The notes beneath the pieces are model-generated. The model saw nothing but the letters and a program-made list of their open reading frames with translations. It searched no databases and had not been told where the DNA came from. A program made the translations under genes and the position numbers. A DNA stretch of 63,991 bases, counting the filler, from Asterionella formosa (taxonomy: Eukaryota), in NCBI GenBank assembly GCA_002256025.1. It is 18 parts of 18 records of this genome, joined end to end, with 100 filler letters (N's around TTAATTAATTAA, not from the genome) between each part and the next. Parts side by side here need not be neighbours in the genome. Positions count along the whole stretch, not along the records: positions 48,153 to 50,045 come from NKIB01000913.1; positions 50,146 to 52,038 come from NKIB01000915.1; 16 more parts are not named here. One strand, written 5' to 3'. This document shows positions 39,084 to 51,493 of this stretch, piece by piece (the first letter of the stretch is position 1; each line of letters starts with the position of its first letter).

Positions 39084-40080
39084 TGTTAAATTCTTCTGCA
39101 GTCTGACTGCAATGCTAGCTCTTTCTAGACAAGCTCAGTGTATTAAAACCTTCTGTTCTAATCCCACCTTATTGTGAGCTTATTTGATCTATCTTGTAAT
39201 CATTCACATGACCAATTATTAAGGTTCTCTTCCCAAATTTGTATATAGATATTCATTGTGTTGTTAGACATTCAATTCTCAACTGACAACTCAACTCCAC
39301 TCACTTAGTAGAACAATCGTGAATATTCAATGCTATCTGCATTGCGTATATACCTTTCCTTCATTGAAATATTGATTACTTAGAACATTCTCCATTCGAA
39401 TATTTACCTTGGTTTGCTGATATAGTTCTTGGCAATCAATGCTGTTCAAATTCTCACAGCATTTCAATACGGGATTTTGGCTGGAATATTATTCAAGATT
39501 GATTAGTTCGACTGAACTAATATGCACGCAGTACTAAATCTTGACATCCTCCCTGTTCCAGTTCCAACAATCCATTGTCCCATTGCAAATATCATATGCA
39601 TGCGATTCATGTACCTTCTGAGTTACATTCTTTGACAGCAGGTCACTAGGGTTTTCACATGTTTGAACATAGACCACAACAACATATCCATCTTCAGTCT
39701 TCTCACGTATAAAATGATATCTGACATCAATATGCTTTGTCCTTGATCCAACTTGTTGGTTTTTGCTTTGGAAAATCGCTCCAGTGTTATCCTCAGCAAT
39801 TATTGCTGGCAGTTCCACATAGTAGACCTCATCCAATAGATTTGTAACAAATGTAGTATCCTTGACACCGTCGCTTAGGCTGACATACTCAGCTTCTGTG
39901 CTTGATGTTGTTACAATGTTCTGTCCTTTGGATGACCAAGTCACCAAGGAGCGTGCTCCAATAGTTCCGAGATATGCACTTGTACTTTTGCGAGTATCAG
40001 GGTTAATTGCAAATGCACTGTCAACAACATCCATTGGGCGCATTTCTTTAGGGGTTCGCATCTTCATATGCCGATGTTTC
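39084..40080 (-). mobile_element. Ty1/copia family A RNase H plus 3' LTR (39084-39546), near-identical to 1-710
   Basis: ORF 39534-40067 (VDSAFA..DTRKS, SSTEAEY, RTKHIDVRYHF). Only a few substitutions relative to 1-710. Confidence 0.93.
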
Positions 40081-40180
40081 NNNNNNNNNNNNNNNNNNNN
40101 NNNNNNNNNNNNNNNNNNNNNNNNTTAATTAATTAANNNNNNNNNNNNNNNNNNNNNNNNNNNNNNNNNNNNNNNNNNNN

Positions 40181-42074
40181 TTTTTTTTTGGCTGTTCCAA
40201 GGCGCCAGGAGAAAACCTATCCGGCCGCTTTGCCCGCCTGCCCCATCGTTGTGGGGTGCTTGGGGGGCATCATGGGAGGATTCGAACTCCTCCCACCAGT
40301 TCATGTGTTCAGGAATGTTTTTGAGGCACCCCGTCATCCAATCATGTCCCAGTGTCCGGTGAGGCACCCCGCCCCTCTCACCTGGGCGAGGTAGTGTGAG
40401 ACTTTCACTCACTAAAAACCTGTGTGCAGCCCCAGTCTTGACCAGTACGCGGTCTGCCCTACCCGTCGGGGCGTTGGCCCGTGGAGGTGTATGGGACCCC
40501 GTCAAATGCCTCACTTGCGTAAGACCCCCAACGGGACCTGATTATGTTAGCACGAAGGCTAACAACGCTCATCAGGAACCTGGCAAGGGTGGTGGCCCCT
40601 GCCGGGTTCCGTTCCATCTGGCTACCGTCCCCATCGGATGATGAGCTGTCAACCGAAGAGTCACAGTTTTGCTGTGCTGTGACTCCGGTTGGTTCACCCA
40701 TCATCCATCCATGTACCCAGCGGTTATCACAACTCCCTCCGAGGAGCCATGCCAACCGTTGTTGGTCAAAACCGAGGGCGAAATTCGGCCCTAACGTCCG
40801 AACTTTCGCAATCAATTCTGCCATTTGTGGCTCGGTGCGTAGAACACGCCACCGACCACACGTGAACACTAAGTGTTCCAGCGTTTCTGGTTCATCCATA
40901 CCACAAAATGGACACTTCCTCAAATACCTATGAGGCATTCGCTTCCACCCCACCAAGGTGGGGACAGTTACAAATGCCCCAATCCGACACCGAACTATCA
41001 AAGCCAGTCCTGCTTGGTCTTTGGGACTGCCCCCCACACGTGACCGTGTGAGTGGATGCTTGTCAAATCCGGCTCCCTCATACCACACTGTGCGGGCCCC
41101 CGACGGACGAGTCAAGTTCCGTCGGATCCCACACTCTCTCTCCAAGATGCATGCTTTCACTACCTCAGCCAGTACCTTTGGTTCCAGGCTCTGCCATCCA
41201 GCACCCAAGTACCTCTCCACAATAGACACCGGTGCATGGGGGAGCGCATAGCGTTTCAGCCAGCGCGGAACCCCTGAGCACCATGTCCATTTCTGACTTC
41301 GGAATGGTCTTAGGACCAATTCCTGAAGCCAGGTTTTGAGACCCGAGGCCTTGGCATAAGCTCTGGCCCGTCGGGCACCCGCCAAGGCACACATTGGCAA
41401 CATCCGTGCCTCCTTCCAAAGGCCTACTGATGGCACATCCCCTGCCCTCCTGGCTCCAATGCTAGCCCTAAGGCATCGGTTCAGAAGAACCTGCATTTTG
41501 TCCGTAAGGTGACGGTTCATACCATACAGCTCAGCCCCAAAAAGGAGGCGGGGGGCAACTACTCCTGCAACAGTCAGCAAACGCATGGCCATTGGTACCA
41601 CCGGGCACCGTAGAAACGGTACCAAGGTGGCAACTGTGGCCCGCCCTTGCTTGACTCTATGGTCCACCATAGACGAGATAGACAGACCTGGTGTCATGAG
41701 GACACCCAGATACATATATCTGTCCACAACAGGGAGTGGAAGTCCCTCCAGTTCCAGTCCAGCCACATCTTGTCCAGGGACAAGCGGTTCGGTGGCCGAA
41801 CCTGGGTCTGGCGGTAGGAATTCCATCAGCCCGCACTTCCCTATGCCCACACTCATCTCGTTAGCTGTAACCCAGTTGGTAACGTGCGTACAGAACCGTT
41901 TGGCCGCCTCCAGGGAGGGGCAGATTCCGGCCGCATCATCAGCAAAGAGGGTACATCCCACTGTCAGTGTGGGTGTGGAGTTCCGCCATGTGCGACTGTC
42001 CCCAGTTGGTACCAGGGCACCGCTCTCCTCCGTCCCCACTGCCAAGTCATCAATGAAGATGTTGAACAGTATAG
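40181..42074 (-). mobile_element. Non-LTR retrotransposon 3' part (RT C-terminal half, CCHC zinc motif, 3' UTR, poly(A)); copy 1
   Basis: LFNIFIDDL..LFADD..KCGLM..YMYLGV and CPFCGMDEPETLEHLVFTC; stop at 40459; T-run at the contig start is the poly(A) tail. Confidence 0.9.
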
Positions 42075-42174
42075 NNNNNNNNNNNNNNNNNNNNNNNNNN
42101 NNNNNNNNNNNNNNNNNNTTAATTAATTAANNNNNNNNNNNNNNNNNNNNNNNNNNNNNNNNNNNNNNNNNNNN

Positions 42175-44066
42175 CTATACTGTTCAACATCTTCATTGAT
42201 GACTTGGCAGTGGGGACGGAGGAGAGCGGTGCCCTGGTACCAACTGGGGACAGTCGCACATGGCGGAACTCCACACCCACACTGACAGTGGGATGTACCC
42301 TCTTTGCTGATGATGCGGCCGGAATCTGCCCCTCCCTGGAGGCGGCCAAACGGTTCTGTACGCACGTTACCAACTGGGTTACAGCTAACGAGATGAGTGT
42401 GGGCATAGGGAAGTGCGGGCTGATGGAATTCCTACCGCCAGACCCAGGTTCGGCCACCGAACCGCTTGTCCCTGGACAAGATGTGGCTGGACTGGAACTG
42501 GAGGGACTTCCACTCCCTGTTGTGGACAGATATATGTATCTGGGTGTCCTCATGACACCAGGTCTGTCTATCTCGTCTATGGTGGACCATAGAGTCAAGC
42601 AAGGGCGGGCCACAGTTGCCACCTTGGTACCGTTTCTACGGTGCCCGGTGGTACCAATGGCCATGCGTTTGCTGACTGTTGCAGGAGTAGTTGCCCCCCG
42701 CCTCCTTTTTGGGGCTGAGCTGTATGGTATGAACCGTCACCTTACGGACAAAATGCAGGTTCTTCTGAACCGATGCCTTAGGGCTAGCATTGGAGCCAGG
42801 AGGGCAGGGGATGTGCCATCAGTAGGCCTTTGGAAGGAGGCACGGATGTTGCCAATGTGTGCCTTGGCGGGTGCCCGACGGGCCAGAGCTTATGCCAAGG
42901 CCTCGGGTCTCAAAACCTGGCTTCAGGAATTGGTCCTAAGACCATTCCGAAGTCAGAAATGGACATGGTGCTCAGGGGTTCCGCGCTGGCTGAAACGCTA
43001 TGCGCTCCCCCATGCACCGGTGCCTATTGTGGAGAGGTACTTGGGTGCTGGATGGCAGAGCCTGGAACCAAAGGTACTGGCTGAGGTAGTGAAAGCATGC
43101 ATCTTGGAGAGAGAGTGTGGGATCCGACGGAACTTGACTCGTCCGTCGGGGGCCCGCACAGTGTGGTATGAGGGAGCCGGATTTGACAAGCATCCACTCA
43201 CACGGTCACGTGTGGGGGGCAGTCCCAAAGACCAAGCAGGACTGGCTTTGATAGTTCGGTGTCGGATTGGGGCATTTGTAACTGTCCCCACCTTGGTGGG
43301 GTGGAAGCGAATGCCTCATAGGTATTTGAGGAAGTGTCCATTTTGTGGTATGGATGAACCAGAAACGCTGGAACACTTAGTGTTCACGTGTGGTCGGTGG
43401 CGTGTTCTACGCACCGAGCCACACATGGCAGAATTGATTGCGAAAGTTCGGACGTTAGGGCCGAATTTCGCCCTCGGTTTTGACCAACAACGGTTGGCAT
43501 GGCTCCTCGGAGGGAGTTGTGATAACCGCTGGGTACATGGATGGATGATGGGTGAACCAACCGGAGTCACAGCACAGCAAAACTGTGACTCTTCGGTTGA
43601 CAGCTCATCATCCGATGGGGACGGTAGCCAGATGGAACGGAACCCGGCAGGGGCCACCACCCTTGCCAGGTTCCTGATGAGCGTTGTTAGCCTTCGTGCT
43701 AACATAATCAGGTCCCGTTGGGGGTCTTACGCAAGTGAGGCATTTGACGGGGTCCCATACACCTCCACGGGCCAACGCCCCGACGGGTAGGGCAGACCGC
43801 GTACTGGTCAAGACTGGGGCTGCACACAGGTTTTTAGTGAGTGAAAGTCTCACACTACCTCGCCCAGGTGAGAGGGGCGGGGTGCCTCACCGGACACTGG
43901 GACATGATTGGATGACGGGGTGCCTCAAAAACATTCCTGAACACATGAACTGGTGGGAGGAGTTCGAATCCTCCCATGATGCCCCCCAAGCACCCCACAA
44001 CGATGGGGCAGGCGGGCAAAGCGGCCGGATAGGTTTTCTCCTGGCGCCTTAACAGCCAAAAAAAAA
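42175..44066 (+). mobile_element. Non-LTR retrotransposon 3' part; copy 2 (ORF open from contig start, stop at 43790)
   Basis: Same sequence as 40181-42074 apart from a few differences (S/P, Q/H, 2-nt indel before the tail). Ends AACAGCC-A9. Confidence 0.9.
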
Positions 44067-46690: not shown

Positions 46691-48599
46691 ACATTTTATT
46701 ATTGAAAGCTTACCTCGTATATGTGGTTAAGCTAGATATATGGCTGTGCGAAATAGGAATAATTCATTTTCAATTTTCTTGGAGATATTGAGTCCGATGA
46801 GTTCATCATGGCCAAGAAAGGGATGATGAATCATCTACCCTCTACTAGTACAGCAGCGCAAAATCAAATTTACTTATGTATACCACCAAGAACCCGGTAT
46901 ACACATGGAGAACTTGCTTGTCATCTGCAGATAGGGGGATTCAGATGCCAGGGCAGGTATATCACGTTTTGGTCTTCAGACTTGAGATTCTTATGCTTTT
47001 CCCTAAATGCTCTCCCAAAAATCCAAACCATATAATATACTGGTACATATGGTGGTTGTTTGTCCTACATCTGTCGCTACCAGTAACTGGTACCAGTATG
47101 CCATCATTGTCACAAACAGGCGACACATTGCCTGTTTCAGGAAAATGACCGCAACTTGCAGTACTCCTTGTCAGGGACCAGTTCCACTGGTATAATCTTC
47201 TAGTAACTAATGTGTATAGTATATCAATGGCAAATAAAGGGAACGGCTAAGTGGTTTAGCACATTGCCTTTGATCTGAGGTTGCGAAGCTTGATTCCCAA
47301 ATCGTTTTGAGAAGCAATTGTTGGAATTCAACTCCCACACTCCTTACTGTCCCGCACGGTCTTGCCTGATGCGCAAGAAATAGTGGGTTGCCACTGTGGC
47401 TAATACAATAACCTTTCGCGAAAGGTGGTTGGGGACTCACCTACCTTGAGTCCAGTCCAGTATACTACACGTGCACTTGTTGCCTGTGTGGAAGAACAAT
47501 TCATAATTTCAGATCAAACAGTCTTGCTTTGCTAAGTTACAAGAATTTCTGACACCATGATCATTGACAATACACGCCAACGCATACCCCAATCATATTT
47601 ATCTCTGGGATATATGAAGGATTTGAGAGTGTATTCCTTTACCATACCAAAAAGATGGCAAAAGGTCAGTTAGCTATATTTTGGAGGAGAACTCATTGAG
47701 CATTGTTGTGTCATCCAATCATCACAGTATTATTGTCAATCAGGTGTCCACAGATATTGAGTAACAACAAGATCCTCAAGGTAGCAATGACCACTCGAAC
47801 AGATTATGTAGTTGTTGCAGCGGAGACGGATTCAAACCTTGATGCTCTGTTATGTACCATTTGTGAAGCGCTGGTGACCCTTGGAATCTCAGACTGTGAC
47901 AACAATGCAAACTTGCTGGCAATCTTAAAATGCCTTGGAAGAGGTTCAATGTTGTCTCAGTCCCACCTATAAGCACTGCCATTAACACATATTGCTCATG
48001 CAACGCCTCAACCACTGTAGTGTCATTGCATGAAGAGGAGCATTGAAGCATCNNNNNNNNNNNNNNNNNNNNNNNNNNNNNNNNNNNNNNNNNNNNTTAA
48101 TTAATTAANNNNNNNNNNNNNNNNNNNNNNNNNNNNNNNNNNNNNNNNNNNNACAATAATTGCGGTTGTCGATACAGAAATTATATGATCGGCCATAAAA
48201 AAATATTGTTAGTTTGCCCCAAAATTTATGTGGGTTTATAAAAAATTTAGGAAGTTGTCGAAAATATCTTAGTTCACTCCTATCATATATATTCTATGAT
48301 GCATCACATTTTATATTTTATATCATACCCTTAAATTATGTATATAGCCCAATTTGTCATAGTGGGCCACCCAAAATTTTAATTTGGGTGATCATATTTG
48401 ACTAGCGTTTTTTTTGTGGTGGCTGTACCAATAATCGGCGTTGTAGATGTGGGAACGATTGGGCAATATGAGCTCAGCCGTTTTGGATGGTGCCTAGTAT
48501 GTGGCACACATGATCAACAACCTACCGGAGAGCTACAAGAGTTTGGTAGTAGGAAGGTTCAGTCTGGCGTGCAACACGCTAATGGTCGACGAGATTAAG

Positions 48600-49700
48600 A
48601 CAGACATCCGGGACTACTACAATCGATATGTCCGGGATGACGTCAAAAAGAATAACAAGAAGAAGAGCGAGTGAACAGGCCTTCTACACGAAAGGGAAGT
48701 GCAAAGGTGACTGTTGTAAGTGTGGCAAGTATGGCCACAATGCAGCTGACTGTTGCAGCAAGGGCAATAGTGCCAACAAGAAGGAGCTCACTCCTGAGCA
48801 GAAAGTAAAGAGGAAAACAATCAAGTGTTTCAAGTGCCAATGCATGGGACACTACGCAAGTGAGTGCACTAGGCTAGTAACAGTGCATCTAAAAATAATA
48901 AAAGCGAAGAGAACAGCAAGGAATGGTCGTTGCCACGTGCGTCGAAATAGTTACAACAAGGAAGTCAACCTTGCTTGTGGCATCAGAAATCGCTGGTTGT
49001 TAGACAGCGGTGCTACCGTTCACATCTGCACGGACGTGCGCATAATGGAAGACAAGAAACAAGTAAGTGAAACGGTCGTGGTAGGGAATGGAACTGAGAT
49101 AGTATCAACTGTCTCTGGTACCATGACCCTGACAACTACGGACGAAGGAAAACGCTTGAAACTCACCGATGTACTTTATGCACCGGAGTTCAAGCGGAAC
49201 ATCATCAGTGTCTCTAGAATGATTGACAAGGGTAATCAAGTGATCTTCGAGGACGATACTAGCATGACGATATGAAACAAGAGTGGCTTTCTGACCTGCA
49301 AAAGAGACAAACTCGAAAACTCGGAGCAATGTATCATGTTGAAGGCAGGTAATCCGATTATCAAGCAAATGTTGATGGAAGTCGAGCAACTACAAGAGAA
49401 CACTACACAACAATCGATCGATGAATACAATGAAAATGATTGGACAAAAGTTTAAGCAAAGAAAACGAACAAGGGAAAGAACAAATGGAATCATCAAAAT
49501 GGTGAGTATGAAAATAATTATGTGATTGTCGATATTAATGAAGCGCATGTGATGCTTGGGCATGTGGGCGAGAAATGTTTGCACGATATGGCGAAATTTT
49601 TTGGATGGAAGTTGAGTGGCATCATGTCAGTGTGCGCAGGCTGTGCGGCAGCGAAAGCTAAAGCACGAGCCACCCCAAAAACAACACAAGAAAAATCGAC
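48600..49700 (+). mobile_element. Degenerate Ty1/copia gag-protease-pre-integrase fragment
   Basis: Two zinc knuckles (CCKCGKYGHNAADC, CFKCQCMGHYASEC), WLLDSGATVHIC, DVLYAPEFKRNIISVS, AHVMLGH..CAGCAAAK. Contains stops and frameshifts and breaks off at ~49700. Confidence 0.9.
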
Positions 49701-49726
49701 TGTAAAAGTATTTTGTGCAATGATAT

Positions 49727-49815
49727 CATAAGACCCACGCTCTGACCACTGAGTTACAAGAGCAGCAATTGAGAAGGCTTGCTTGAGGAGGGGTTCAAAC
49801 CCTCAACCTTGCACT
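49727..49815 (-). tRNA. tRNA-Ile(UAU)-like sequence in circularly permuted order (3' half 49815-49780, 16-nt spacer, 5' half 49763-49727), probably decayed
   Basis: Minus strand: A GTGCA AGGTT GAGGG TTTGAAC CCCTC CTCAAGC A (positions 38-73), spacer, then GCTCTTG TA ACTC AGTGGTCA GAGC G TGGGT CT TAT G (positions 1-37). The halves total exactly 73 nt with a perfect T-stem. Confidence 0.65.
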
Positions 49816-50830
49816 GTCTTTACAGACATGTCTATATTCATTAGGATTTGAATATTCAAATGCTAGCATCATCATATGTAACAGTCAAGTAGTGGTGGTA
49901 CCTGGTCCCGAATATAACTATTATACCTGGGACATCCGGAAAACGTGGTTAAAACCGTGTAAGAGCAATAATTTTGGGGTTAATTATTATTAGCTAATTA
50001 TACAGAACTTGATATATATATATATATTGTTGAGAGCGCATCGTGNNNNNNNNNNNNNNNNNNNNNNNNNNNNNNNNNNNNNNNNNNNNTTAATTAATTA
50101 ANNNNNNNNNNNNNNNNNNNNNNNNNNNNNNNNNNNNNNNNNNNNGACCTACCGGTTCCAGGTAACTGATCATCATTCGTCATAGTAAATGGTAGTGCAC
50201 GCTAACCAGTACCTTAGTACCGATAGTTTGCACATTCAAATATATTTTGCAGCCGCCGGGTCGTGCATGTGACACATATTTATGATACGAGTAGGTATAC
50301 TATCGGTAGAGTAGCAATATAAAACATTCATCGATGAAGAATCTATCTTTACATATTTTATGCATTTGAAATGGAATCTATATACGTACGCGCAAATTTC
50401 CACTCATTTGAATTTTTCACACGTAATCATTGATATTCAAATTAGCACATAAAAGTTCTTAGTTCCAGGGAATTTCGGCAACCCTAAGCAATATTTTAAT
50501 TTTTGCCTAGGGGTTCAAATGCAGGAACCTTAATAGTTTATCACCTACTATAAATAAAAATTGAGATAAGTTGGATCGCTTGCCTTGCCTACTGAAATAG
50601 GCGGGTGTTAGCACCTGCCAAACGTGGCCTATTGCAATCGCGAGAGAATCTTGTGAAGGATTGTTGAAAATTCTCAACAAAGCAACGTGGTTCCATTTGA
50701 CACCCCCTTGATTCATACTTTGAAACAGATGATACATGCATCTTCCATGTCTTCAATGATAATTCATAGCCTTGAAGCTTGCTCGTTTTGTGATTGGCGT
50801 CGAGTTTGTTCTGACGATTTTTCTCTTGAA

Positions 50831-51352
50831 CTAACCATATCGTTTTGCAACTTCATCTGTGGGTATGACTCCGTATTGAGAACATAGATCCTTGTACCAT
50901 TGCGGACTTCCCAATCCACTATAATCGCAACTCATTTCTTCTCCAGCCGAAACATCTCTCAAGGCACAGGACATGCCCGACCTACTTGTATTATTAAGAT
51001 CTGAGTCAAATTTGGCATACCCCACATTCGGATCGGACGAATGATTCATAAATCGGCCCTCATCATTGGGGTTGACACAAAAATGATTGTCGTCAGTCTC
51101 AAGTACAAAGCCTTGTCTCAAAAACTCGTGTGCCTTGCTTGCTGTCATTTCCTTCAATTGCATGGCAAGTTCCTCGCAGGTCAACATTGTAACCAACATG
51201 GGCGTCCAAACAGGAGTTCCTCTCGACACGTGTTCTCTGGCGAAGACGCCATGCCCAATCTCGTCACTTATAAACTTGACATCTACAGGAATGAAGAAAC
51301 CAACAACTCTGGTTTCATCCTTGTTCTTTTTCCTTGGCTCCTCCTCACTCAT
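50831..51352 (-). CDS. Small stand-alone SET-domain protein (putative lysine methyltransferase)
   Basis: GHGVFA, RFMNHSSDPN and ALRDVSAGEEMSCDY SET motifs; intronless 173 aa. Confidence 0.88.
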   Translation of the reverse strand: MSEEEPRKKNKDETRVVGFFIPVDVKFISDEIGHGVFAREHVSRGTPVWTPMLVTMLTCEELAMQLKEMTASKAHEFLRQGFVLETDDNHFCVNPNDEGRFMNHSSDPNVGYAKFDSDLNNTSRSGMSCALRDVSAGEEMSCDYSGLGSPQWYKDLCSQYGVIPTDEVAKRYG

Positions 51353-51493
51353 GGTGATGAATCATGTCACCAATTGAATTCAACAATTTTAGTAAAACGT
51401 CAAGACAATAAGTTCAGTACCGGTACTCCGTACAGTATATATCTTACCGGGAACGTAGTAAACTATGGTCCAGGATTCCTTGATGAAGCTAAA

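Follow-up and report, generated by a model that had tools for sequence, protein, structure and literature searches.

Two tRNA gene fragments in permuted order on a retroelement-rich contig of the diatom Asterionella formosa: a probable relic of a tRNA cluster

Circularly permuted tRNA genes have been reported from Cyanidioschyzon merolae, from prasinophytes (Ostreococcus, Micromonas, and Bathycoccus), from the nucleomorph of Bigelowiella natans, from Thermofilum pendens, and from the Bathycoccus virus BpV1 (excerpts of PMC3978253, PMC13578239, and PMC3673656). None from a diatom is named in the excerpts of the reviews PMC3978253 and PMC13578239 or in the literature that we searched. Ile-UAU tRNAs are listed for the prasinoviruses OtV5, OtV1, OlV1, BpV1/2, and MpV1 in part of PMC3673656, and a tRNA-Ile is listed for CpV-BQ1 in part of PMC12085832.

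The locus studied here lies in a window of 63,991 nucleotides (the whole stretch of DNA that was analyzed) from the diatom Asterionella formosa, assembly GCA_002256025.1. A preliminary description had proposed that it is a circularly permuted tRNA-Ile(UAU) gene. A working gene of this kind would give diatoms their first example of a rare architecture and extend that architecture to the stramenopiles, but the evidence says otherwise. Judging from its sequence, the locus is probably a nonfunctional slice across the junction of two head-to-tail tRNA genes.

The site is carried by a 1,893-nt contig (NKIB01000913.1) located between artificial separators at 48053-48152 and 50046-50145, the latter comprising 100 nt (44 N, TTAATTAATTAA, 44 N). 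It is one of 17 short pieces of about 1.9 kb each that were glued via such separators, of which there are 17 across the window. On this contig, a low-copy island of 126 nt (49705-49830) is wedged between two repeats, with boundaries at 49704/49705 and 49830/49831 that are marked by read depth and by the loose ends of contigs. The contig is of diatom type and rich in retroelement sequence, and no viral gene was seen on it. Within the window, it is the first 30-kb piece that supports the diatom origin.

On one side of the island is a fragment of a Copia-type retroelement polyprotein (48583-49704, plus strand), which has a very high copy number and ends abruptly at 49704. It contains a zinc knuckle, the Pol beta-barrel/protease region, and a pre-integrase zinc-binding region, with Pfam matches to Pol_BBD (E 1.8e-18), zf-CCHC (E 1.2e-3), and, below the cut-off, gag_pre-integrs (E 4e-4). 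Other copies run past 49704 with the coding sequence in frame (records 22 and 29). The truncation is inside the integrase region, and the junction is internal to the element and not an element end. On the other side, an AT-rich repeat (49831-50045) adjoins the island; nine contigs of run X1 reach 49831 from a preceding sequence other than the island. The summed depth of the Copia-type fragment is 30 to 300 times that of the island, and in run X1 the AT-rich repeat is 6 to 11 times as deep as the island bin. Nowhere on the contig is the depth lower than in this bin, with 1,706 in X1 versus 140,000 to 1,000,000 over most of the Copia-type part, and the bin's depth of 102 in run X2 corresponds to a single contig of depth 98. 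No second copy of the island was found elsewhere in the window, and a tRNA-derived SINE was rejected on the grounds of this low depth and the lack of another copy.

Read along the minus strand, the island consists of a 15-nt "leader" (49816-49830), a 3' tRNA fragment (49780-49815; nominal positions 38 to 73), a 16-nt spacer (49764-49779), a 5' fragment of a tRNA-Ile(UAU) gene (49726-49763; positions 1 to 38, anticodon TAT), and a 21-nt "trailer" (49705-49725). In the uncut window, neither ARAGORN nor Rfam reported a tRNA at this site. Each piece was excised before being scored with the truncated-match mode of Infernal. In addition, the whole window was searched with a family profile built from 18 tRNA-Ile(UAU) relatives.

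The 5' fragment holds the 5' strand of the acceptor stem, the D arm with A10, the 5' strand of the anticodon stem, and the full anticodon loop, including an A38 of its own. RF00005 ranked first among 4227 Rfam families for the excised piece (16.1 bits, model 1-36, E 0.17), and nhmmer aligned the family profile to it from position -1 to position 38 with an E value of 2.1e-11. Together with the anticodon TAT, this bears out the proposed tRNA-Ile(UAU) identity. Searches with blastn gave 36/39 identity to three related loci (L011, L016, and L019), with alignments that always stop at 49726, and the fragment has 34 of 37 letters in common with each of these three and with a fourth (L002).

The 3' fragment comprises the variable loop, a perfect T stem, a T loop with T56, the 3' strand of the acceptor stem, and a discriminator A. 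Here too, the tRNA family RF00005 was the top match among the 4227 Rfam families (16.3 bits, model 37-71, E 0.16). The family profile covers positions 44 to 73 (E 1.3e-3 locally and 0.24 window-wide), which leaves positions 38 to 43, before the start of the alignment, unconstrained. The best local alignment scores of this fragment were 17 for Ile(tat) and 16 for Arg(tct). In the window-wide ranking, the 5' fragment came first (E 3.8e-9) and the 3' fragment second, followed by a match with E 3. The two best profile matches thus lie 16 nt apart on the same strand, which is more than chance. The order put forward in the preliminary description, with the 3' half preceding the 5' half on the minus strand across a 16-nt gap, therefore holds, both parts being tRNA derived by RF00005 and by the profile.

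The claims that the split falls exactly at 37/38 and that the halves sum to 73 nt do not hold in the same way, since they are a product of the chosen cut. The 5' fragment aligns through its own A38 (49726), so that the locus has two copies of position 38, which is what remnants of two separate genes would show. An apparently exact 37/38 break can arise from how the pieces are delimited, and two neighbors in a tRNA cluster that are cut across, above all if they bear introns, can pass for one permuted gene; the locus may serve as a cautionary case in both respects.

The relatives of the 5' fragment are tRNA-Ile(UAU) genes, intronless or intron bearing, in which position 37 is unusually a G. The G37-A38 loop is found in 66 of the 74 unique relatives and is present in the 5' fragment too, which has the D arm and anticodon arm sequence with TAT, G37, and A38 that characterizes the family. 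A complete gene of 73 to 76 nt (plus an intron in some members) is absent, as the normal order covers positions 1 to 38 only and ARAGORN finds no such gene in the window. A 25-mer of the 5' part had two matches in viral contigs, both named GVMAG, 19 in metagenome contigs, and none among 185,579 prokaryote genomes. The label "giant virus" is used here on the basis of these IMG/VR contig names and the absence from prokaryote genomes, a cellular (diatom) origin being possible, and it does not extend to L007, L014, L021, and the other metagenome contigs. Patterns of the 3' fragment had no match in viral contigs, and a distant blastn search of the phage collection with the island gave none either.

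The relatives usually stand head to tail in tRNA clusters, with spacers of 0 to 30 nt. Ile-Ile tandems occur in 5 of 19 metagenome loci (spacers of 7 to 26 nt). A tRNA neighbor on the same strand within 30 nt was found in 39 of 91 loci with Ile(tat), a count in which some contigs appear twice; in 17 of those 39 the neighbor is upstream, and 7 of these 17 neighbors are themselves Ile(tat). Of eight variant loci, two have an intron at the canonical site (76 nt in L096 and 11 nt in L099), and a tRNA-Asn with a 27-nt intron is present in four loci. All 103 related loci, which were drawn from viral and metagenome contigs, lack the permuted order. The preliminary description had named ordinary head-to-tail tandem arrays at other loci, of which the site would be a slice, as one of two findings that would speak against it, and such tandems, Ile-Ile pairs included, are what the relatives normally form.

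These observations suggest that the island preserves the 3' part of one gene, the 16 nt that separated it from its downstream neighbor, and the 5' part of that neighbor, a tRNA-Ile(UAU) gene. The source genes would have belonged to the G37 family, which in public data is typical of giant-virus tRNA clusters and has some members with an intron at 37/38. In those clusters, the 3' end of a tRNA is normally followed, after a short spacer free of T runs, by the 5' start of a tRNA-Ile(UAU) gene, as it is here, and the clusters share with the 5' fragment the G37-A38 loop and the 34 letters mentioned above. The spacer of the island has no T run and hence no Pol III stop between the two fragments, which fits cotranscribed genes of a cluster.

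The outer parts of both genes were presumably lost at or near the anticodon loop, leaving the 126-nt island as what appears to be a descendant of such a cluster. Given that some relatives carry introns at the canonical site, the abrupt end of similarity at 37/38 in both fragments fits a cut through two intron-bearing neighbors. The 15-nt and 21-nt flanks would then be intron ends, although the flanks themselves match nothing. The leader had no similarity to the relatives or their flanks, the trailer had none to the relatives, and comparison of the flanks and spacer of the island with all related loci yielded only chance matches of 8 to 13 nt. No intact cluster with the same spacer, and no ancestor of the locus, was found among the related loci. 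One point counts against a slice across two neighboring genes: both breaks lie only a few bases from position 38, a coincidence that we estimate at about one in ten if the breaks were independent and random (a 7-nt window out of 73). The island also differs from giant-virus clusters in that it retains only the inner halves of two neighbors, is mutated at invariant positions, and lies on a retroelement-rich contig. A fragment of a giant-virus-linked tRNA-Ile(UAU) gene in such a diatom contig may be a trace of past uptake of viral DNA.

After the loss of the outer parts, the island would have decayed further, and the molecule obtained by rejoining the two fragments is not a credible tRNA. Using ARAGORN together with a ViennaRNA script, we found that the rejoined 73-mer is negative at the default and at the slightly lowered (-ps) threshold, a gene being reported only at -ps50 (50% threshold). 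Failure of the rejoined sequence to score as a tRNA was the other finding that the preliminary description had named as speaking against it. The acceptor stem, for which a single U-U mismatch had been claimed, has three mismatches (4-69, 5-68, and 6-67) and pairs at 4 of 7 positions. The D stem pairs at 3 of 4 positions, and the anticodon stem has two Watson-Crick and two GU pairs out of five. The cloverleaf energy is -7.6 kcal/mol, which is about 12 to 18 kcal/mol weaker than in 17 of the 18 relatives (-19.2 to -25.5 kcal/mol). Position 56 is T, compared with C in all 74 unique relatives, and position 10 is A, compared with G in 72 of the 74. The earlier caveat that the locus is a decayed copy is thus supported by A10, T56, and the stem mismatches. 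A working tRNA is not to be expected from such a sequence.

Like the permuted genes of the type described by Soma in 2007, the locus has its 3' part upstream of the 5' part on the same strand, and its 16-nt gap is within the 1 to 74 bp known for the intervening sequence of permuted tRNA genes (excerpt of PMC3978253). With its nominal junction in the anticodon loop, the locus resembles type II permuted genes. If the locus were, or had recently been, a true permuted tRNA-Ile(UAU) gene, its transcript would contain the leader, the 3' half, the spacer, the 5' half, and the trailer. Cleavage by the splicing endonuclease at the 37/38 junction, followed by ligation, would yield a circle, to be opened at the acceptor ends by RNase P and tRNase Z. 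The layout of a tandem pair that has lost its outer halves, seen here, is also that of the proposed evolutionary intermediate in the accepted origin model of permuted genes (excerpt of PMC3978253).

Processing by this route calls for a bulge-helix-bulge at the junction, which is not formed: the idealized motif has 3 of 4 pairs in the central helix and 0 of 3 in the outer helix. The leader does end in AAGAC, as had been pointed out, and its G at -3 can pair with C32, giving a possible 3-bp helix between positions 32 to 34 and -3 to -5 beside a 3-nt bulge. This part of the proposed leader pairing stands, but under the relaxed eukaryotic rule only the single 32:-3 pair is possible. In the minimum free energy dimer, the trailer pairs perfectly with positions 39 to 43 of the 3' fragment in place of the proposed anticodon stem, and the leader folds on itself in a 5-bp hairpin. 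An anticodon stem built with the trailer was rejected, as it gives no loop with U33. The precursor region as a whole does not fold more stably than shuffled sequences (z = +0.51), 135 of 200 shuffles being equally or more stable.

Letters that resemble transcription signals are present on both sides. The TTTT run noted after the 5' half, at +20 to +23, straddles the retroelement junction, and a longer T run at 49690-49694 is inside the retroelement coding sequence. The 3' fragment is preceded by AT-rich, "TATA-like" letters, which lie in the repeat that begins at 49831. The locus is found in DNA contigs of three other runs with 0 to 1 differences, which would favor a maintained gene; however, these runs most simply come from the same species, so the identity is no proof of conservation. 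With the weak cloverleaf, the loss of G10 and C56, the second A38, promoter- and terminator-like letters that lie within or straddle flanking repeats, and neither a permuted order among the related loci nor a second copy in the window, the locus departs from known permuted genes, and we consider a working or recently working one unlikely.

Other parallels can be drawn. Pseudogenes and gene fragments of tRNAs occur in repeat-rich eukaryotic DNA. Like them, the island is of single or low copy number, has mutations at conserved positions, lacks parts of the gene, and sits among transposable elements. It differs from ordinary tRNA pseudogenes in that fragments of two neighboring genes happen to be arranged as they would be in a permuted gene. 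The YrlA-type tRNA mimics (RF02553) also have the T arm and D arm swapped and a loop that connects the acceptor ends, whereas here there is a TAT anticodon loop, the setting is eukaryotic, and the acceptor pairing is poor. RF02553 gave no match at E values up to 10 in 49400-50100 and none at the gathering score in the window, and a mimic of this type was rejected.

Breaks in both anticodon loops could also result from retro-copying of an RNA. A precursor carrying two tRNAs would be cut in both loops, in the way that tRNA halves form or anticodon nucleases act, and the middle piece would be reverse-transcribed beside retroelement cDNA. This would account for the breaks without introns and for a site that adjoins an internally truncated Copia-type element, and reverse transcription of permuted or circular pre-tRNAs features in a published origin model (excerpt of PMC3978253). 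The sense strand of the tRNA fragments is, however, opposite to that of the retroelement, which is not expected from template switching; no microhomology or poly(A) was seen at the island junctions, and the 15-nt and 21-nt flanks are left without an account. On balance, retro-copying seems improbable.

A further proposal takes the slice of a tRNA cluster as its starting point. Two intron-bearing, virus-type neighbors could have lost their outer halves through rearrangements by mobile elements, and the island would then be an intermediate in the birth of a permuted tRNA gene in a diatom, perhaps still transcribed from a flanking repeat, cut, and circularized at a low level. Its layout is the one predicted by the model in which a duplication is followed by loss of the outer halves. 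This proposal is decidedly improbable; if true, a piece of a giant-virus tRNA cluster would have become fixed in a diatom genome.

Site-specific insertion into both anticodon loops, at integrase-type attachment sites or by cassettes, would explain the position of both breaks, the flanks being remnants of the elements. Against this, no integrase, attachment-site repeat, or replacement 3' tRNA part was found after the 5' fragment, distances of 15 and 21 nt separate the tRNA breaks from the points where the repeats begin, and the Copia-type element is joined to the island at an interior point and not at one of its ends. Such insertions are therefore very unlikely.

An artifact, be it chance resemblance or an assembler chimera, might be suspected in a contig that is a short leftover with repeats on both sides of the island and a 3' fragment that is weak on its own window-wide, but it is hardly plausible in view of the E value of the 5' fragment, the second-best match, which is on the same strand at a distance of 16 nt, and a 204-nt contig of run X2 (record 15, 49654-49857) that crosses both junctions with zero differences. 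The 49830/49831 junction is also present, with a single difference in each case, in contigs of two further runs (records 24 and 31).

The primer-binding site of the Copia-type element, or primer read-through from it, was considered as a source of the fragments and rejected, since the pieces lie inside the integrase region and not after an LTR, and there is no CCA complement. Weak Rfam matches to HSUR, sau-31, and GlsR14 were also recorded near the site, with E values of 0.5 to 0.9 and scores far below the gathering scores, and are taken as chance.

On the minus strand of the 1,893-nt contig at 48153-50045, the sequence reads as the 3' part of a tRNA (49815-49780), a 16-nt spacer, and the 5' part of a tRNA with the anticodon TAT (49763-49727). 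The swapped order, the spacer, and the anticodon are as stated in the preliminary description, which proposed a circularly permuted tRNA-Ile(UAU) gene. ARAGORN reported no tRNA gene in the whole window, and Rfam gave no match at gathering scores and no tRNA match within 49400-50100 at E values up to 10. When each piece was cut out so that Infernal could score a truncated match, tRNA was the top of the 4227 families compared, both for the 5' piece (16.1 bits, model positions 1-36, E of 0.17) and for the 3' piece (16.3 bits, model positions 37-71, E of 0.16). A family profile built from 18 relatives matched the 5' and 3' pieces with E values of 2.1e-11 and 1.3e-3 in a local search and of 3.8e-9 and 0.24 over the whole window, where the next match had an E of 3. 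Judged by their alignment to the profile, two matches 16 nt apart on the same strand are not a product of chance. For the 3' piece, the isotype call is nearly tied, with best local alignment scores of 17 for Ile(tat) versus 16 for Arg(tct) in a comparison set dominated by Ile.

The window is a pseudo-molecule of one 30,099-nt piece and 17 leftover contigs of 1,891 to 1,903 nt each. Within 30100-63991 the contigs are joined by artificial 100-nt separators (44 N, TTAATTAATTAA, and 44 N; e.g., 48053-48152 and 50046-50145), so that adjacency across separators is meaningless. The 30,099-nt piece is of diatom origin: among the best 120 of 7,987 matches of its SAICAR synthase, all that are named are diatoms, at 64 to 71% identity. 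The small contigs presumably derive from the same organism.

A Copia-type polyprotein fragment was identified by Pfam on the plus strand at 48583-49704 (Pol_BBD, E of 1.8e-18, and a zinc knuckle; the pre-integrase domain, E of 4e-4, is below the cut-off). Contigs of four public sequencing runs (X1 to X4) were aligned to this contig. The Copia-type part is present in very high copy, with a summed depth in X1 of about 140,000 to 1,000,000 in most bins, and over 49753-49816 the X1 depth falls to 1,706. X3 and X4 contigs that follow the retroelement carry a different sequence after 49704 that extends the reading frame, and nine X1 contigs reach 49831 from another preceding sequence. The depth drop and the contigs diverging at 49704 and 49831 therefore delimit a low-copy island of 126 nt (49705-49830), in which the 3' piece (36 nt), the spacer (16 nt), and the 5' piece with A38 (38 nt) are flanked by unassigned sequence, 15 nt before the 3' piece and 21 nt after the 5' piece. 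Its bin depth of 102 in X2 amounts to one contig of depth 98. The junctions at both ends of the island are real: X2 record 15 matches 49654-49857 throughout with no difference, and X3 record 24 and X4 record 31 both cross 49830/49831, each showing a single difference. The X2 to X4 contigs probably come from the same species in other lakes, and identical copies are thus no sign of conservation. The proposed TTTT run is present at 49707-49704 but straddles the retroelement junction, and a longer T run (49694-49690) lies inside the retroelement coding sequence. TATA-like letters are also present, but within the other repeat, which starts at 49831.

Relatives were sought with a 25-letter query taken from the start of the 5' piece and made degenerate at three positions. 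This query matched two viral contigs, both named giant-virus MAGs, and 19 metagenome contigs, and had no match in 185,579 prokaryote genomes. Among the 19 metagenome loci, 15 have a tRNA-Ile(tat) gene that is complete and lacks an intron, one is truncated at its contig end, and three are of other isotypes; Ile-Ile tandems with spacers of 7 to 26 nt occur in five of the 19. The anticodon-arm motif recovered 74 viral-contig loci, each with an ordinary tRNA-Ile(tat) and mostly in head-to-tail clusters with spacers of 0 to 30 nt. With some contigs counted twice, Ile(tat) is present in 91 of 95 loci, 39 of which have a same-strand tRNA neighbor within 30 nt; this neighbor is upstream in 17 of the 39 and is itself Ile(tat) in 7 of those 17. 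A variant motif free to diverge after G37 yielded eight further loci, six with ordinary genes and two whose gene is interrupted at the canonical intron site, by 76 nt in L096 (280-430) and by 11 nt in L099 (280-365). Four of the 74 viral loci (L031, L040, L045, and L082, 125-226) hold a tRNA-Asn(gtt) whose intron, 27 nt long, is likewise at the canonical site. All of these intron-bearing genes lie inside viral tRNA clusters. None of the 103 related loci has the permuted order. The contig names and the absence from prokaryotes suggest that the relatives are mostly giant-virus genes. According to one published account, tRNA-Ile-UAU is known from prasinoviruses and a permuted tRNA from one Bathycoccus virus (PMC3673656).

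The rejoined molecule does not look like a tRNA. ARAGORN reported nothing at default or -ps settings and a tRNA-Ile(tat) only at -ps50. Pairing is 4/7 in the acceptor stem, 3/4 in the D stem, and 5/5 in the T stem, with two Watson-Crick and two GU pairs among the five positions of the anticodon stem. The cloverleaf energy is -7.6 kcal/mol, versus -19.2 to -25.5 kcal/mol in 17 of the 18 relatives; the 18th, with its one-base deletion, fell out of register in the fixed cloverleaf template. Between the halves, 8 of 12 positions pair, GU included, a count matched by random sequence about 4% of the time. Folding of the 156-nt precursor region is no more stable than that of shuffled versions (z of +0.51; 135 of 200 at least as stable). 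An idealized bulge-helix-bulge junction has 3/4 pairs in the central helix and 0/3 in the outer helix, and in the minimum-energy pairing the 21-nt trailer pairs with positions 39-43 while the 15-nt leader folds on itself. Position 56 is T and position 10 is A in the island copy, where C56 is found in all 74 unique relatives and G10 in 72 of them. The variants C20 and G28 of the island copy also occur naturally (e.g., in L088). Within the 5' piece, A10 is the sole mark of decay.

A split exactly at 37/38 cannot be claimed, because alignments of the 5' piece with its relatives run on to A38 and always stop at 49726, which places position 38 in both pieces. G37-A38 is present in 66 of the 74 unique relatives, as in the island copy. 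The family profile aligns the 3' piece from position 44 only; at positions 38-43, by our own reading, 4/6 letters agree with relatives sharing its 27-31 strand. The sum of 73 nt for the halves is a consequence of the cut points chosen. Coincidence of the two breaks holds only to about seven bases; we estimate that random breaks would agree this closely roughly one time in ten, which is unremarkable in a scan seeking oddities.

The simplest account, which we consider somewhat probable, is that the locus is a decayed slice across two neighboring genes of a tRNA cluster. The slice would run from the 3' part of one gene across the spacer into the 5' part of a tRNA-Ile(UAU) gene. Both genes would have lost their outer parts through breaks in or close to the anticodon loops, perhaps inside introns, and the remnant would have decayed between two repeats. 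The spacer has no T run and so fits co-transcribed cluster genes.

That the locus is, or once was, a true permuted gene seems improbable. The features of such genes, as given in a review, are swapped order, an intervening sequence of 1 to 74 bp, a cloverleaf with conserved nucleotides, a bulge-helix-bulge junction, and a circular intermediate (PMC3978253). The island shares with them the swapped order and the intervening-sequence range; unlike them, it fails in the cloverleaf and the junction, and its promoter-like and terminator-like letters lie in or across repeats, from which they may be borrowed. The same review describes an origin by tandem duplication of an intron-containing gene with loss of the outer exons (PMC3978253), and the island resembles that intermediate in layout. 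In passages of a 2026 review, the permuted genes named are from red algae, green algae, a chlorarachniophyte nucleomorph, and archaea, with no other lineage mentioned (PMC13578239), and among the matches listed by a literature search for "permuted tRNA" with "diatom" no diatom case was found. A rival is that anticodon-loop-specific insertions split both genes, against which it speaks that no element features were seen at the locus. Retro-copying of the middle piece from a precursor that had been cut twice is disfavored by the strand orientation. An artefact is likewise disfavored, since an independent contig spans both junctions.

In tRNAs that read ANN codons, the t6A modification is expected on A37. 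Position 37 of the relatives' tRNA-Ile(UAU) is G in 66 of 74 unique sequences and C in six, and G37 is an odd trait of this mostly giant-virus family. The Copia-type element (48153-49704) reaches an X1 summed depth of about 1,000,000, versus about 1,700 for the island, and shows many internal deletion joints, which suggests a large, heterogeneous family. Equal, very weak matches to the 3' part of the tRNA profile (E of 4.7, 3.2 bits) lie at 43946-43979 (plus) and 40270-40303 (minus) in neighboring, GC-richer contigs (GC of 0.53 over 40001-44000) and are probably a shared repeat. On the contig that follows the one with the tRNA pieces, an open frame at 50831-51361 (minus), unrelated to those pieces, resembles a SET-domain protein by eye.
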